From IMG/VR virus record IMGVR_UViG_3300020045_001266, positions 1 through 43,397 of that record: 43,397 nucleotides of DNA, one strand, 5' to 3'. The DNA comes from a virus (Duplodnaviria; Caudoviricetes). This document shows, in pieces, positions 24,505-38,808 of the stretch (position 1 is its first letter; each line of letters starts with the position of its first letter). The notes under the pieces are model-generated. The model saw only the letters and a list, made by a program, of their open reading frames with translations, had not been told where the DNA came from and made no database searches. Made by a program: the position numbers and the translations under genes.

Positions 24505-24577
24505 CCACCGGGGCAGGATTCGAACCTGCGCATGGACGGATTATTGATCCGGTGCCTTACCGCTTGGCTACCCAGTG
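24505..24577 (-). tRNA. Atypical tRNA: Gln-type body with anticodon loop TCAATAA (nominal AAT)
   Basis: Cloverleaf CACTGGG/CCCGGTG, GCC-AAGCGGTAA-GGC, CCGGA-TCAATAA-TCCGT, GCAGG-TTCGAAT-CCTGC; discriminator G; no encoded CCA. Confidence 0.75.
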
Positions 24578-28884: not shown

Positions 28885-30252
28885 TTAATCAAAGCCACGG
28901 CTGGACACTGGCGCCGAACGCGGTGGCTCAGGATGCCAGCCTTTGGCCAGGTCTTCAAAGCGCGTTAGGTGGCCGATGTAGGCGGTGCGCACGGTGCTGC
29001 TGGCGCCTTGGCGTACGAGCGCGTTGATCAGCTCAGCCGTACCGGCGTCCGGTGAATCGCGGTTGTACACCACATCCTGGTAGACGAAGGTGGCAATGTC
29101 GCAATCCTGTTCGATCGAGCCAGAGTCGCGCAGGTCGGACGGCAGCGGGCGCTTGTTCGGCCTGTCTTCCAGCTTGCGGTTCAACTGCGACAGCAGGGCT
29201 ATCACGCAATCCAATTCCTTGGACAGCGCCTTGAGGCCGCGCGTGATGGCCTCGATCTGCGCATTCCGGTTGTCGCCCGGTCCGCTCATAAGCTGCAGGT
29301 AGTCGACCACCAGCAAGTCTAGTCCGCCAGCCTTGCGCTTGATCTGCATAGCCTTGCCGCGCACCTGCATCAGCGTCAATCCGCCCTGGTCATCCATGTA
29401 CAGCCGCATCTTGGCGATTTTCTCTGTCGCGGTGCCCAGGTGCTGCCATTCCTCATCCGTCAGAAGCTTGGGCGAGCTCAGGTGGTTCAAGTCGATACGG
29501 CCGATGCTGGCCAGGTTCCGGTTGTGCAGCTCGGCCTTACCCATTTCCATCGACAGCACCAGCGCCACGCCGCCGACGGCCACATGGTTGGCGATGTTCA
29601 GCGCCAGCGCCGTCTTACCCATCTTCGGCCGGCCGGCGATCACCCACAGGTTGCCGCGGCGCGGGCCGCCATTCAGGGCGATATCCAGATCGGTGATTCC
29701 GGTGGCCACAGCTGGGGATGCGCTGCCGTGGTATTCCTCGTCCATGCGCACCAGGTGGTGCGATAGGCTCTCGATGGCCAAGTCTGGCTCTCCGTCGACG
29801 TTGGCGCGGCCCAGCGCTTCCAGCTTGCTGGCGGCCGCGTCGACCAGTGCCGGGCCGTCGGCAGCCGAACTATAGGCGTCCTCGATCATGTCGTGCGCCA
29901 GCGCCAGCATGCGACGCTTAATCGCGCGGTCACGCACCACGGCGCAATACGAGGCGATATTCGCGGCACTCGGCATCACCTGGTGCATCTGGCTCAGGTA
30001 GCCGATTTCAACGTCCTTGCCCTGGTCCTTGATGCTGGCGAACACGGTCATGACGTCGGCCGGCTTGTTGGCTGCCACCAGCTGCACGATGGTGCGGTAG
30101 ATCGTGCGGTGCTGTGCATCGAAAAAGTCATCTTCGATCAGTCCGCCTACTTGATCAATTGACCGGTTCAGGCGAAGCAGGCAGCCGATGACGGACTGCT
30201 CTTGCTCCAGCGCCACCATGCGGTCGGTGTAGCGGTCGTCCATTGCGCTCAT
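28885..30252 (-). CDS. dnaB: Replicative DNA helicase
   Basis: Motifs AGRPKMGKT, LSMEM, VVDYLQLM, LSQLNR and SDLRDSGSIEQDCD. Confidence 0.95.
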   Translation of the reverse strand: MSAMDDRYTDRMVALEQEQSVIGCLLRLNRSIDQVGGLIEDDFFDAQHRTIYRTIVQLVAANKPADVMTVFASIKDQGKDVEIGYLSQMHQVMPSAANIASYCAVVRDRAIKRRMLALAHDMIEDAYSSAADGPALVDAAASKLEALGRANVDGEPDLAIESLSHHLVRMDEEYHGSASPAVATGITDLDIALNGGPRRGNLWVIAGRPKMGKTALALNIANHVAVGGVALVLSMEMGKAELHNRNLASIGRIDLNHLSSPKLLTDEEWQHLGTATEKIAKMRLYMDDQGGLTLMQVRGKAMQIKRKAGGLDLLVVDYLQLMSGPGDNRNAQIEAITRGLKALSKELDCVIALLSQLNRKLEDRPNKRPLPSDLRDSGSIEQDCDIATFVYQDVVYNRDSPDAGTAELINALVRQGASSTVRTAYIGHLTRFEDLAKGWHPEPPRSAPVSSRGFD

Positions 30253-31064
30253 GCTGCTTTCCTTTTTGCTGCTTCCGCTGCGTTCTTGGCCTGGATTCCG
30301 GCTGTGGTCAGCGCGCAGTTACCGTTGTTATCGAAATACCACAGCTTGAACCAGTTGCCGCGTACCGACTTCCCGAAGGCCAGGCGCCACGCCTTGTACT
30401 TTTTCGCCCCCTCGATCAGGTAGCGTGCCTTGAACTCGGACCAGTGCAGCGCCAGCACTTCGGTGCTGATGCCGGCCTCAGTCGCATAGGAAAAAACAGC
30501 ATCGCCATCAGGAATCGGTTTGACGTTTTCGGCTTTGCATTCGGCCAGGTAGGTCTTGAGCGAGTAGGCAGCACGAGGTTTTTTCTCGACATCCACGAAG
30601 CCCCCGACAGGGGGTATGGGGGTATTTGTCTTTACTTCTTCTCTTCTCTTCTCTTCTCTAGGTAACGCACTGCTAACGGTTGGTGCGTTAGCGATTTGTG
30701 CAATTGGCGTTACCGAAGCGTTATTTTTGTGGTTTGCGACACGTTTTGCGGTTTGCGCGCGGCTTTTTGCTGACGCTCCGTTGTGCTCTTCGAACCGTGT
30801 CAGCGTGATGCCGCCGGCCGTGTCTTCAATCCAGTCGATGCTCAACAGCGCGGCACCCATACCCGGCACGCCGGATTCACGGTCGATAGCCTTGAGGCTC
30901 AGGCCAGGCATGTGCCCGTTTTGCGTGTGCTCGTCAGCAGACGACCAGAGCCAGTACAGCGCGCCGACAACGGCCGGCTTGCTTGCATCGGTCAGGTCGC
31001 ACAGCTGCGACACGCGGGGGTCGGTCCAGAGATTCGTGCGGACCTTGATCCATTCGCCAGCCAT
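30249..31064 (-). CDS. Replication initiator protein
   Basis: Directly upstream of dnaB. N-terminus MAGEWIKVRTNLWTDPRV, central low-complexity linker with iteron-like DNA, and REEKRREE motif. Confidence 0.75.
   Translation of the reverse strand: MAGEWIKVRTNLWTDPRVSQLCDLTDASKPAVVGALYWLWSSADEHTQNGHMPGLSLKAIDRESGVPGMGAALLSIDWIEDTAGGITLTRFEEHNGASAKSRAQTAKRVANHKNNASVTPIAQIANAPTVSSALPREEKRREEVKTNTPIPPVGGFVDVEKKPRAAYSLKTYLAECKAENVKPIPDGDAVFSYATEAGISTEVLALHWSEFKARYLIEGAKKYKAWRLAFGKSVRGNWFKLWYFDNNGNCALTTAGIQAKNAAEAAKRKAA
30634..30728. repeat. Putative replication origin (iteron-like repeats inside the initiator gene)
   Basis: Five (G)CGTTA/TAACG units in both orientations at 30661-30725, next to a CTCTT tandem tract. 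Confidence 0.5.
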
Positions 31065-31185: not shown

Positions 31186-31198
31186 TTCAACCGCCCAT

Positions 31199-31280
31199 AA
31201 AAAAGGCTTCACCTACACTCTCATCCCGAAGGAAGTTGGTCGAACCGGACGGTGCCAGCCAGAGTGTATGTGAAGCCTTA
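31199..31280 (-). ncRNA. C4-like structured RNA / attenuator before the replication genes
   Basis: Stem AAGGCTTCAC-A-TACACTCT / AGAGTGTA-G-GTGAAGCCTT encloses two small hairpins (one cUUCGg) and ends in a T run. Confidence 0.65.
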
Positions 31281-31318
31281 CCGATATTTTGCCGACCAAG
31301 GCAAGACAGACTCTACAA

Positions 31319-31528
31319 TTAAACCTTGATCCTACGCAAGCACTTTGTTGCGCCTGCGAAAAATATTTCATGAACGTCTGCCGGTTTCGCTGCAAATTCC
31401 CGGAACACTTCCGCCTGGCGGTCGACCACCGGCTGGCAATCACCGCGGTGGATTGCGATGTTGCAGCCTGGCCTGTCGCCGTCGCGCATGCGCAGCGGGC
31501 AGTAGCTGGCGTGCGCGCAGGGCTTCAT
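31319..31528 (-). CDS. Hypothetical protein
   Basis: 69 aa, ATGA-coupled to the upstream gene. Confidence 0.5.
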   Translation of the reverse strand: MKPCAHASYCPLRMRDGDRPGCNIAIHRGDCQPVVDRQAEVFREFAAKPADVHEIFFAGATKCLRRIKV

Positions 31529-34990: not shown

Positions 34991-35112
34991 AAATCCGCAC
35001 GCAATCGCGCCTCAAGCCCCTGCGCGACTTTATCCGCCAGCCAGCGCTGCATGCTGCAATCGCAGTCATTGCGGCTCTGGCCATCATCGAATACTTTTCT
35101 AAGGCGCCATGA
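34987..35112 (+). CDS. Small membrane protein (41 aa)
   Basis: MKIRTQSRLKPLRDFIRQPALHAAIAVIAALAIIEYFSKAP, ATGA-coupled at both ends. Confidence 0.55.
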   Translation: MKIRTQSRLKPLRDFIRQPALHAAIAVIAALAIIEYFSKAP

Positions 35113-35988: not shown

Positions 35989-36174
35989 ATGGACGCCGAA
36001 GAAATGCTTGAAACTTTGCGTGTTGACGCTGACCAAAAATTCTTCAATCACTTCGACTGGGTGTGGTTGAAAAAGATTAAAGGAGGTGTGTCCGATTGCT
36101 GCCTTGTTTCCGATCCCTGCGATTGGCATATCGAAGTAGCTAAAATTAATGCGCCAGGAGTCGGCCATGCATGA
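35989..36174 (+). CDS. Hypothetical protein
   Basis: 61 aa with RBS AAGGGG. Confidence 0.55.
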   Translation: MDAEEMLETLRVDADQKFFNHFDWVWLKKIKGGVSDCCLVSDPCDWHIEVAKINAPGVGHA

Positions 36175-36370
36175 CCCGATGATCGAGCCTGATTTTCTCG
36201 CCAAAGCCTGCGCCCGTGAAAGCGCAGGCGAAGAGGCAGCGATGTATGCCGAGATTTACGCGGAAGTCGCAGCCGAGCGCGAAGCCCAGGACTTGCCGCC
36301 AGCGCCGATCATGGTGGCGGCAGAAGCTGGGCGCCGGCTGCGGATGGAGTTGAGCAAGCGCAAGAAATAG
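36167..36370 (+). CDS. Hypothetical protein
   Basis: Likely start ATG 36167 after AGGAG. Confidence 0.55.
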   Translation: MHDPMIEPDFLAKACARESAGEEAAMYAEIYAEVAAEREAQDLPPAPIMVAAEAGRRLRMELSKRKK

Positions 36371-36452
36371 TTTGCGCTCGGTCAAGAAAGTGTGGGATGA
36401 TTCGTTTGTCGAAGCCGGCCAGCTGAGACGAAAAATGTTTTGACTATGTTGT

Positions 36453-36561
36453 AGCCCCAAGTTTTTTTGGTGGATCGCAAAATGAGGTGTGGACGTTACA
36501 TAGTCCGTTCATGCCCCAGGTTGGCCGACCCGATCCACCAAAGCATCTTGGGGCTTTTTTT
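36453..36561 (+). ncRNA. C4-like antisense RNA
   Basis: Stems AGCCCCAAG/CTTGGGGCT and TTTGGTGGATCG/CGATCCACCAAA enclose two hairpins and end in a T7 run. Complementary sites lie upstream and downstream. Confidence 0.65.
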
Positions 36562-36587
36562 CGTTCTTTTTTCTGGCCAGGCCCAAC

Positions 36588-36880
36588 TGGATTCCGCAAG
36601 ACGCCGATCGGCACCGTAACGGAATTGAGAGCGCAACGGGTGATTTGTTGAAAGCGCAAGTGAAAAGAGTCGGCCGCAAGGCTGTCCGAGAACCACCAGC
36701 AAGGCGCTTCAAGGCGCGTAATCTCGGAGGCCCTGGACTTGAATATTGGGGCGCCAGTGAAAACGATAGATAACTTCCTATACGGTTTCGCAGGTACTTG
36801 ACTGAGGTTCCTTGTTCATAGGGCCTTAGGCGAGTATTTGCCAGCTTTACTCCAGATTCATCCTTACGGTATCACCTAAA
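36588..36880 (+). ncRNA. Candidate large structured RNA in the recombination-operon leader
   Basis: Multiple nested helices and GNRA-type loops; no credible ORF. Confidence 0.5.
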
Positions 36881-36904
36881 CAACTATATACAGAGGAAAA
36901 GAAA

Positions 36905-37696
36905 ATGAGCAATATCGTACCGTTTCAAGAACTGGAGGGCATGGCCAGCTACATCGTGCGCTCCAAGCTGTTCGGCGCCAAGGATGAATCGCAAGCCATG
37001 GCCTTGATGATGCTGGCCCAGGCAGAAGGCATGCATCCCATGTCGGCTATCCAGGACTTCGATATCGTCCAGGGCCGTCCAGCGCGCAAGACGCATTCGA
37101 TCCTGGCCCGCTTCCAGGCTGCTGGTGGCTCTGTCGCATGGGAAGTCATCAGCGCCACCAAGGCGGTGGGCACGTTCACCCACAAGCAGGGCGGCACGCT
37201 GCGCGTTGAATGGACATTCGAGCAGGCGAAGAAGGCCGGTCTGACCAATAAGGATAACTGGAAAAATTACCCGCAAGCCATGCTGCGCGCGCGAGTCATC
37301 GCGGAAGGCGTGCGCGCCGTCTACCCTGGCGCCATCGGCGGCATGCTGACTGTCGAGGAAGCGCAGGACTTGGCGCCGGCGCAAGCCACGCGCGACATGG
37401 GCAATGCCGACGTGGTGATGAGCAAGGACTGGGTTGCTGCGGCTAATATGTGCCAGAGCACCGATGAATTGACCAAGTGCTGGGAATCCGGCATCAAGGA
37501 AATCCAGGCCGCCAACGACATGAGCATGTACACCGAGTTCAAATCTACCGTGGCGGCGCGCGGCGCTGAACTTAAAAAGCCGGCTATCTCCGACGACGCG
37601 CGCACCATCGACATGCCGGCCGCCACGCCAGCGCCAGAAGCCACGCCGCCGACGGATGAAGAGCTCGACCTGCAACGCACCGGGGGCCAGCCATGA
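36905..37696 (+). CDS. RecT/Red-beta-like single-strand annealing protein
   Basis: IVQGRPA, WTFEQAKKAGL and NWKNYPQAMLRAR...RAVYP..GGMLTVEE motifs; paired with the exonuclease. Confidence 0.8.
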   Translation: MSNIVPFQELEGMASYIVRSKLFGAKDESQAMALMMLAQAEGMHPMSAIQDFDIVQGRPARKTHSILARFQAAGGSVAWEVISATKAVGTFTHKQGGTLRVEWTFEQAKKAGLTNKDNWKNYPQAMLRARVIAEGVRAVYPGAIGGMLTVEEAQDLAPAQATRDMGNADVVMSKDWVAAANMCQSTDELTKCWESGIKEIQAANDMSMYTEFKSTVAARGAELKKPAISDDARTIDMPAATPAPEATPPTDEELDLQRTGGQP

Positions 37697-38808
37697 GATT
37701 CGTAGAAGCCCGGCAGGGCACTGCTGAATGGTTTCAAGCGCGCGTCGGCAAGATCACGGCGTCGTGCTTTGCTGATGCAATCTCGCGCGTCGGCGCACTG
37801 GACGAGCGCCAGGCCAAGTATGTAACGCTGGTGCGCGGCGGGATGACGCCGGCCGATGCTGTCAAGGCAGCCGGGTACAAGGCGGCGCCGACGGCTGAAA
37901 GCATGGTGCGCGCGCTACTGGGCGAAGACCCCAGCGACCACTCGGACACGGCCAAGCGCTACGCGGCTGACCTGGCCATCGAGCGCATCAGCAATCAGCC
38001 TCACGGCGAACCGCCAAAGGCCTGGGTACTGGAGCGTGGTCACGAAATGGAAGCGCGCGCCCGCATGTTGTACGAAGCGCGCACCGGCGCCTTCATTACA
38101 GAGTCCGGCATCTGCATCAGCGATGACAATCTTTTCGGTTACAGCAGCGACGGTCTAGCGGACGATGACGGTCTGATCGAAATCAAGGCGCCCATCGACA
38201 GCATCAAGATCATGGACATGTGGCGCACCGGCGACACCAGCGAATACGATCACCAAATCCAGGGCGGCCTGTGGCTGACCGGCCGCAAGTGGCTGGACTT
38301 CATCATGTTCGTGCCGGACCTGGCCGCCTGCGGCAAAGACCTGTACGTGAAGCGCATCTATCGTGATGAGGCATTCATCGACAAGATGGTCGCGCAGCTG
38401 GCCGACTTTGACCGCTTGGTCGAAACCTACACTTTCATCCTGCGCGCCGATACCGTCGCCATCACCATCACAGAGGAAACTATGAACACTGAAAACTCCG
38501 CGCCCGGCAAGAATGACATGCTTGCATCTGCCCCTTTCGACGTCAGCGTCGACACCCCCGCGCCAGCCGTGCTGGAGAAGTTCGATATCCAGGTGCGCGA
38601 GACAGCGCCGGCCGGGCCTCCATCGCTGCGCCTTGGCCAGATCACGGAACGCCTGGGCTTCACCATCACGGCTGACTTCATGCTGACGCTGGGCTTCGCG
38701 CCCGCCGCCACTGACAAGGCTGCCAAGCTGTACCATGAGTCCGACTTCAAAGCGATCTGCGCGGCCATCCTGCGCCACGTGTCGGCAGTCAGCGCGGCCT
38801 ACCAATGA
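37693..38808 (+). CDS. YqaJ / lambda-exonuclease family 5'-3' exonuclease
   Basis: QGTAEWFQARVGKITAS, ERGHEME, SSDGL, IEIKAP and YDHQIQGGLW motifs. Confidence 0.9.
   Translation: MRFVEARQGTAEWFQARVGKITASCFADAISRVGALDERQAKYVTLVRGGMTPADAVKAAGYKAAPTAESMVRALLGEDPSDHSDTAKRYAADLAIERISNQPHGEPPKAWVLERGHEMEARARMLYEARTGAFITESGICISDDNLFGYSSDGLADDDGLIEIKAPIDSIKIMDMWRTGDTSEYDHQIQGGLWLTGRKWLDFIMFVPDLAACGKDLYVKRIYRDEAFIDKMVAQLADFDRLVETYTFILRADTVAITITEETMNTENSAPGKNDMLASAPFDVSVDTPAPAVLEKFDIQVRETAPAGPPSLRLGQITERLGFTITADFMLTLGFAPAATDKAAKLYHESDFKAICAAILRHVSAVSAAYQ

Follow-up and report, generated by a model that had tools for sequence, protein, structure and literature searches.

The window analysed here, the whole 43,397-nucleotide stretch, is a complete 43.4-kb phage genome with terminal repeats. 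Limnohabitans phage DC33 has a capsid protein sharing 65% identity with that of the window, a hint that the host is betaproteobacterial. A domain scan of the genome identified neither a PF00589 integrase nor a PF00717 repressor. As the original prediction stated, a 534-bp gap without a credible ORF (36371-36904) interrupts the gene series; it is bounded by a 66-aa ORF upstream and a RecT-like gene downstream, with a YqaJ exonuclease gene and an HNH gene next in order (Table 1). The 66-aa ORF is retained in the relatives L107-L109, ahead of other leaders of the kind described below. The phage carries its own replication initiator and DnaB away from the gap. A 14-nt inverted repeat at 36350-36385 overlaps the upstream stop codon and the -35 box and is a possible operator or terminator. 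Elsewhere in the genome, a tRNA match (24505-24577, minus strand, 52.5 bits) shows an unusual anticodon loop, UCAAUAA in the alignment.

Table 1. Features of the gap, its neighbouring genes and the second leader.
Feature	Position	Strand	Basis
66-aa ORF, no known family	36170..36370	+	Stop abuts promoter
Promoter-like site TTGCGC, 18 nt, GATGAT	36372..36401	+	Inferred; loose scan, below scanner threshold
5' code motif of leader, CGGCCAGCT	36416..36424	+	Complementary to 36519-36527; duplex -17 kcal/mol
Long terminator-type hairpin, arms 36453-77 / 36531-55, then U7 run	36453..36561	+	z -5.0, 0/200 shuffles
Post-U-run strand; in read-through RNA, predicted partner of the 5' motif	36562..36582	+	Predicted folds
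Module, discrete conserved non-coding cassette, likely folded RNA domain	36586..36875	+	Borders, identity, frame-breaking single-base deletions, folding
Predicted hairpin ATTCCG/CGGAAT	36591..36625	+	X2 alters 36621 and 36624; partner positions not among the differences listed
Predicted GCAA-capped hairpin and TCCGAGA/TCTCGGA stem	36671..36728	+	No change among the variant differences listed
Hairpin; two pairs change in compensation, one goes from G-U to G-C	36730..36752	+	X2 and X20 variants; pair probabilities
Long hairpin, several G-U pairs; folds best within the module	36790..36841	+	z -4.4
RecT-like single-strand annealing protein	36905..37696	+	PF03837; first gene after module
YqaJ-like exonuclease	37693..38808	+	PF09588
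Second leader, same build, code TTGGTCGG / TCGACCAA, U-run at 31204, no module	31195..31340	-	z -2.0

The second half of the gap contains a discrete non-coding unit ahead of recT, about 290 nt long, as had been proposed; it is conserved, and its limits are set by flanks that are exchanged in public contigs (8 of the 23 listed runs are covered by the comparison). Contigs on other phage backbones (X2, X15 and X20) match the window from 36586 or 36603 to 36873-36875 and then diverge, and the module is 87-99% identical between contigs while both flanks are exchanged. The borders first given (36588..36880) are nearly right, and are adjusted here by a few nucleotides to those of the contigs. The module is better conserved in sequence than the recT gene: contig X5 differs from the window at no fewer than 5 and no more than 9 positions of the 290-nt module (5 among the changes listed; 4 of the contig total of 23 lie outside the list, which gives the upper bound of 9) versus 46 positions in 668 nt of recT. 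The specific link to recombination genes drawn in the original prediction finds no support, since other sequence follows the module in X2, X15 and X20; modules in the same slot elsewhere also precede helicase-like or small genes. The upstream loose end of X20 resembles the leader of L107.

Among the runs, the RNA run X18 yielded one 189-nt contig (depth 3) on 36627-36815, X15 and X16 are flagged as probably DNA, X20 is by guess an RNA run, and X19 covers the upstream ORF only. A contig of X5 (depth 9) joins 36429 to 36905, so that leader and module are skipped.

A small protein gene hidden in the gap on either strand is scarcely credible. The minus strand does contain two stretches free of stop codons (120 and 123 codons), and a weak promoter-like site (36912-36883) faces the same way. 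However, the minus-strand ORFs listed in the gap start only with TTG, otherwise similar copies of the module differ by single-base deletions at 36641, 36788 and 36804, which argue against coding, and deletions of one or two bases occur in the leader. The minus-strand site itself (TTGCTC, 18 nt, TATAGT; 8 of 12 matches, below threshold) faces into the module and would place a start near its right border. The module is a conserved and interchangeable non-coding cassette that probably acts at the RNA level, as suggested by strand-asymmetric folding and two compensatory pairs.

The fold itself departs from the one first drawn. All eight strings given with coordinates and the three quoted hairpin strings are present where claimed, and as a set the helices are at chance level: region 36588-36880 has a z of -1.53, with 13 of 200 shuffles folding equally well, and it contains 11 perfect 6-bp pairs versus 9.3 in shuffled sequence and three 7-bp pairs versus 2.3. 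GNRA tetramers, described as frequent, are mildly raised only (17 versus 12.3 in dinucleotide shuffles, P = 0.06). In the partition function, three of the individual helices are supported, with pair probabilities of 0.97 (ATTCCG/CGGAAT), 0.82 (GGCC/GGCT) and 0.95 (TCCGAGA/TCTCGGA), and three remain at or below 0.03: GGGTGAT/ATCACCT (0.03), GGCCCT/AGGGCC (0.00) and GGCGAG/TTTGCC (0.00). The nested long-range arrangement is not supported as drawn, and one of its helices (36729-34/36820-25) is contradicted by natural variants: X2 and X20 break it, altering 36732, 36733 and 36734 jointly with 36749 and 36750, and thereby preserve a local hairpin (36730-34/36748-52). Module covariation amounts to two pairs in two runs among the differences listed (a further 207 and 44 rows are outside the list), and the variant evidence for the fold is partial because only part of the differences is listed.

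The 3' half of the module beats shuffles on the plus strand only (36790-36850, z -4.4 versus +0.4 on the minus strand), and the 5' half is no better than shuffles (36588-36730, z +0.1). Changes at 36808 and 36820 preserve the pairs of the long hairpin, 36814 and 36819 lie in its loop, and X2 is without 36804. A 23-nt stretch at the start of a 292-aa ORF (35090-35112) is 78% complementary to 36816-36838 within this hairpin, which is by estimate about the chance level for a region of such size.

Folding is strongest in the first half of the gap (36408-36587, z -7.1), which the original prediction left out. The stronger element of the locus is, as modelled, this upstream leader, composed of a promoter-like site, a 5' motif, a long terminator-type hairpin with a 7-nt bulge on its 3' side (36523-29) and a U-run, and the module is interpretable only jointly with it. 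No promoter was identified in the window leader region at the scanner's standard threshold; L107 holds TTGCGG-17-TAGAAT at the position equivalent to the promoter-like site. The same build of motif, hairpin and U-run recurs across related phages, and many other leaders share the predicted pairing of the 5' motif with the strand beyond the U-run. Sub-threshold matches to Betaproteobacteria toxic sRNA (RF02278) lie shortly before the leader in L050 (216-273) and L053 (736-796). L004 has about 400 nt of non-coding sequence upstream of 1461, before RecT, in which neither a leader hairpin nor an Rfam match was detected.

The 7-10-nt 5' motif differs from phage to phage (for example, GUGAGAA, GUGGUAA, UUGGACU and UGGGCCAACA), and in 19 leaders it matches the bulge region of its own leader and co-varies with it. 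This was evaluated with windows fixed for all leaders, the 5' region against the stretch 12-40 nt before the U-run, and with Watson-Crick pairs only; an alternative test that chooses sites by best match is circular, and the fixed-window test is the valid one. The longest helix averages 7.1 for own pairs versus 4.9 +- 1.0 for foreign pairs, a length of at least 7 is reached by 15 of the 19 own pairs versus 7.6% of foreign pairs, and none of 100,000 permutations was as good (p < 1e-5), although these statistics overstate independence because the records are related and were chosen by RecT/exonuclease similarity. Three leaders (L002, L153 and L109, the last at the homologous site) pair only 5 Watson-Crick bases. 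Among 66 distinct hairpin and U-run sites, a score of at least 7 is found at 22 of the 27 with a promoter-like site and at 9 of the 39 without one. In six aligned leaders, 95.7% of cells are paired and nine pairs have double changes (0 of 500 shuffles), two of the nine belonging to the motif/bulge helix. A second, seqC-like target downstream was considered and rejected: such sites are not enriched (permutation p 0.31), and the window site at 36669-76 has a shuffle P of 0.26.

A second leader, on the minus strand, precedes a 39-aa ORF and then the replication initiator (30249-31064). Its motif pairs with the bulge of the recombination leader at -11.9 kcal/mol, similar to the -11.1 kcal/mol for its own partner, which may reflect cross-regulation or chance. 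Four of five two-leader genomes keep their codes separate; the window is the exception, with one cross-pair as strong as the cognate.

The leader was scanned for by rule in 32 of the 50 handled records, many of them in part (first 20 or 40 kb), and is present in 14 of these, or 15 with the window. None of the 15 leader-bearing records contains PF00589 or PF00717, whereas PF00589 occurs in 14 and PF00717 in 5 of the 18 leader-less records. The association with absence of PF00589 has a Fisher p of 6e-6 (9e-5 for records at least 90% complete), with four records set aside by eye because their scan hits have no promoter and lie inside open frames; with these four counted as leader-positive, p is 0.006. 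No leader was identified in the GenBank phages Limnohabitans DC33, Burkholderia BcepC6B and CBW1004C-Prop1 by the scan, nor in GenBank phages by blastn with three leaders or modules or with the second leader. A scan with the L107 leader gave 14 hits, of which only the two known records are true.

Covariation of motif and bulge does not separate pairing in cis from pairing in trans, and it fits equally well an intramolecular pseudoknot that stabilizes a constitutive short RNA, leader and module then being one or two stable RNAs without any switching. This static structure would need no downstream target, and none was found; moreover, an RNA that occupies the module position in other phages, Betaproteobacteria-1, is typed in Rfam as an sRNA gene. 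It is nevertheless rather unlikely: every leader has a promoter-like site on one side and an operon on the other, a strand past the U-run is predicted to compete for the motif, the codes are separate in most two-leader genomes, and leaders go with a lack of CI and integrase.

The module could not be assigned to a named family, in agreement with the original prediction: Rfam gave no match, whether gathering or E-value thresholds were applied. It is very improbable that the module belongs to an undescribed class of self-cleaving ribozymes or processing elements and cuts the leader from the mRNA; high sequence conservation that includes the loops would suit this, but no Rfam ribozyme matches, and a string search identified none of the core motifs of hammerhead, pistol and group II domain 5 RNAs.

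No homologue of the module below about 87% identity was retrieved by any sequence or model search. None beyond chance was found in the regions upstream of 70 RecT, 3 small-ORF and 50 exonuclease loci. Blastn against phages and plasmids gave chance matches or nothing, and the same holds for viral contigs scanned by pattern and for scans of one metagenome and one genome; a RecT scan of genomes, BLAST in the 50 related records and single-sequence models (R1 and R2, over 1.2 Mb) gave no homologue. Among published candidates upstream of RecT/YqaJ, DNAVirus_7753, 339 and 2675 were rejected, being 40-65 nt long and unfit in size and habitat (Fremin 2023, PMC10690425, part of the text). The accessible part of PMC10085705 contains nothing relevant to leader or module, and no published description of either was found in the literature covered, which leaves aside subscription journals and supplements, where unnamed candidates are possible.

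Across records, the slot directly after the leader contains an RF02932 RNA, other modules, a protein gene or nothing. In 5 of 50 related records the leader U-run is followed directly by the Rfam motif Betaproteobacteria-1 (RF02932). Elsewhere the same slot is taken by at least three further sequence families, each 250-330 nt long, and L112 and L225 carry there a protein gene that is HNH-like by sequence. The window module is unrelated to 22 other slot modules (best pairwise z 2.6). In one module family with three copies, 10 of 64 predicted pairs show double changes.

Betaproteobacteria-1 resembles the window module in its place right after the same kind of leader, in its phage context, and in one member (L107) in the shared upstream ORF. 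By eye, window positions 36591-36692 may also follow the RF02932 order of three hairpins with large first and second loops, in a 5' half whose z is +0.1 and with an alignment that is out of register. However, the window gives no RF02932 match at E-values up to 10 (the required score is 49.4 bits), and the model of its 5' half (R1) fails to retrieve RF02932 RNAs. Thus, the window module shares the RF02932 context, fails the test in both directions and is not an RF02932 member. The motif is absent from the main text of its source paper (PMC5737381, supplement aside). In L049, L163, L165 and L107, the RF02932 RNA seems about 100 nt longer than the Rfam model, and its first and second loops, judged by eye, pair with each other (CAG/CUG, versus AAG/CUU in L165).

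Variation in the slot also bears on a role of the module as DNA, for example as an origin or recombination hot spot. The family formed by the modules of L025, L048 and L227 has two or three DnaA-box-like sites near its 3' end, which suggests origin function for that family, and a conserved block between exchanged flanks could be a crossover region. For the window module a DNA role is improbable: it contains no DnaA-box-like site, the initiator and DnaB lie elsewhere, and no skew break occurs at the module. Folding that is strand-specific with G-U pairs, and compensatory changes, also speak against it.

The leader may instead be an attenuator behind which the module acts in cis as a processive antiterminator, binding RNA polymerase in the manner of HK022 putR and so securing complete transcription of the recombination operon. 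HK022 put is likewise a structured nascent RNA downstream of early recombination/replication promoters, and putR lies about 270 nt from the transcription start and needs no phage protein (PMC9378689, part of the text); the module sits downstream of an early promoter, and no N-like gene was identified among the window proteins scanned. Yet put comprises about 70 nt in two stem-loops (same source), compared with a unit of 290 nt in the window, which has no Rfam match. At least five unrelated module types, or none, fill the slot, and the replication leader of the window has no module. These many unrelated folds, and the absence of any at the replication leader, argue against put-like polymerase binding, which is quite unlikely, and for accessory RNA cargo.

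The reading preferred here, tentatively and at a little less than an even chance, is that the module is an interchangeable, likely folded RNA behind an attenuator akin to P4 CI, and is likely made only upon read-through. With borders, conservation, leader architecture, motif/bulge covariation and distribution established from sequence comparison, we infer termination, switching and module activity as follows. Transcription would start near 36408. The 5' motif would form a duplex with the long hairpin's bulge region, and this pairing in cis would hinder closure of the terminator base and lead to read-through. Acting in trans, a short terminated RNA of about 155 nt, with its bulge exposed, would capture the 5' motif on newly made transcripts and favour termination. 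The motif would have competing partners, the bulge region and the post-U-run strand that is present only in read-through RNA, and the sign of the switch could be reversed. The result would be phage-specific negative feedback, as immunity or copy control, on the recombination and replication operons, serving phages without CI and integrase through an RNA in place of a repressor protein. In the read-through transcript the module would occupy the first cargo slot, as a protein-binding accessory RNA that is released by processing or acts within the leader; this role is favoured over that of a recT-specific regulator.

Several known systems share parts of this design. Attenuators of the pT181 type place an antisense-gated terminator before a replication initiator, and their antisense RNA is made from the opposite strand, whereas the complementary site of the window lies within the same transcript. 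Termination in P4 is Rho-dependent, whereas the window leader has an intrinsic-type hairpin and U-run and belongs to phages without integrase. Like P4 CI and P1/P7 C4 (RF01695), the window has a promoter-proximal leader with an exposed site and an upstream complement, before replication genes; unlike them, it gives no RF01695 match and has one target site, with no enriched downstream seqC or a2/b2 site. P4 CI RNA brings about premature termination through its pairing to seqA and seqC (PMC4825925, part of the text). According to the same source, Gifsy-1 IsrK yields short terminated and read-through RNAs from one promoter, and the short form works in trans on its longer counterpart, pairing with about 30 nt downstream and activating translation of a small ORF. 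The likeness to the window would lie in a short form acting on a long form; the partner in the window is instead a 7-10-nt upstream motif, the downstream unit is non-coding, and Rfam scans gave no IsrK match.

What is likely new here is the combination of an antisense-type attenuator leader bearing a phage-specific code with an uncatalogued RNA cassette. A broader proposal, somewhat unlikely as a whole, is that a large group of proteobacterial phages free of integrase and CI run both early operons with one self-targeting attenuator, in which a 7-10-nt code sets immunity or copy-control specificity, and that they carry swappable, unrelated, folded RNA cargo of 250-330 nt, the window module being a new class, possibly directed against host defence.

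The function-less Rfam motif Betaproteobacteria-1 gains a context as one of several unrelated RNAs in one slot. To these the module adds another, uncatalogued one whose borders are set by natural exchange. The natural code swaps offer a ready-made test by compensatory mutation and a series of RNA switches that are separable from one another. If the leader works in the way proposed, it would explain the control of replication and recombination genes in abundant aquatic phages that have neither CI nor integrase.
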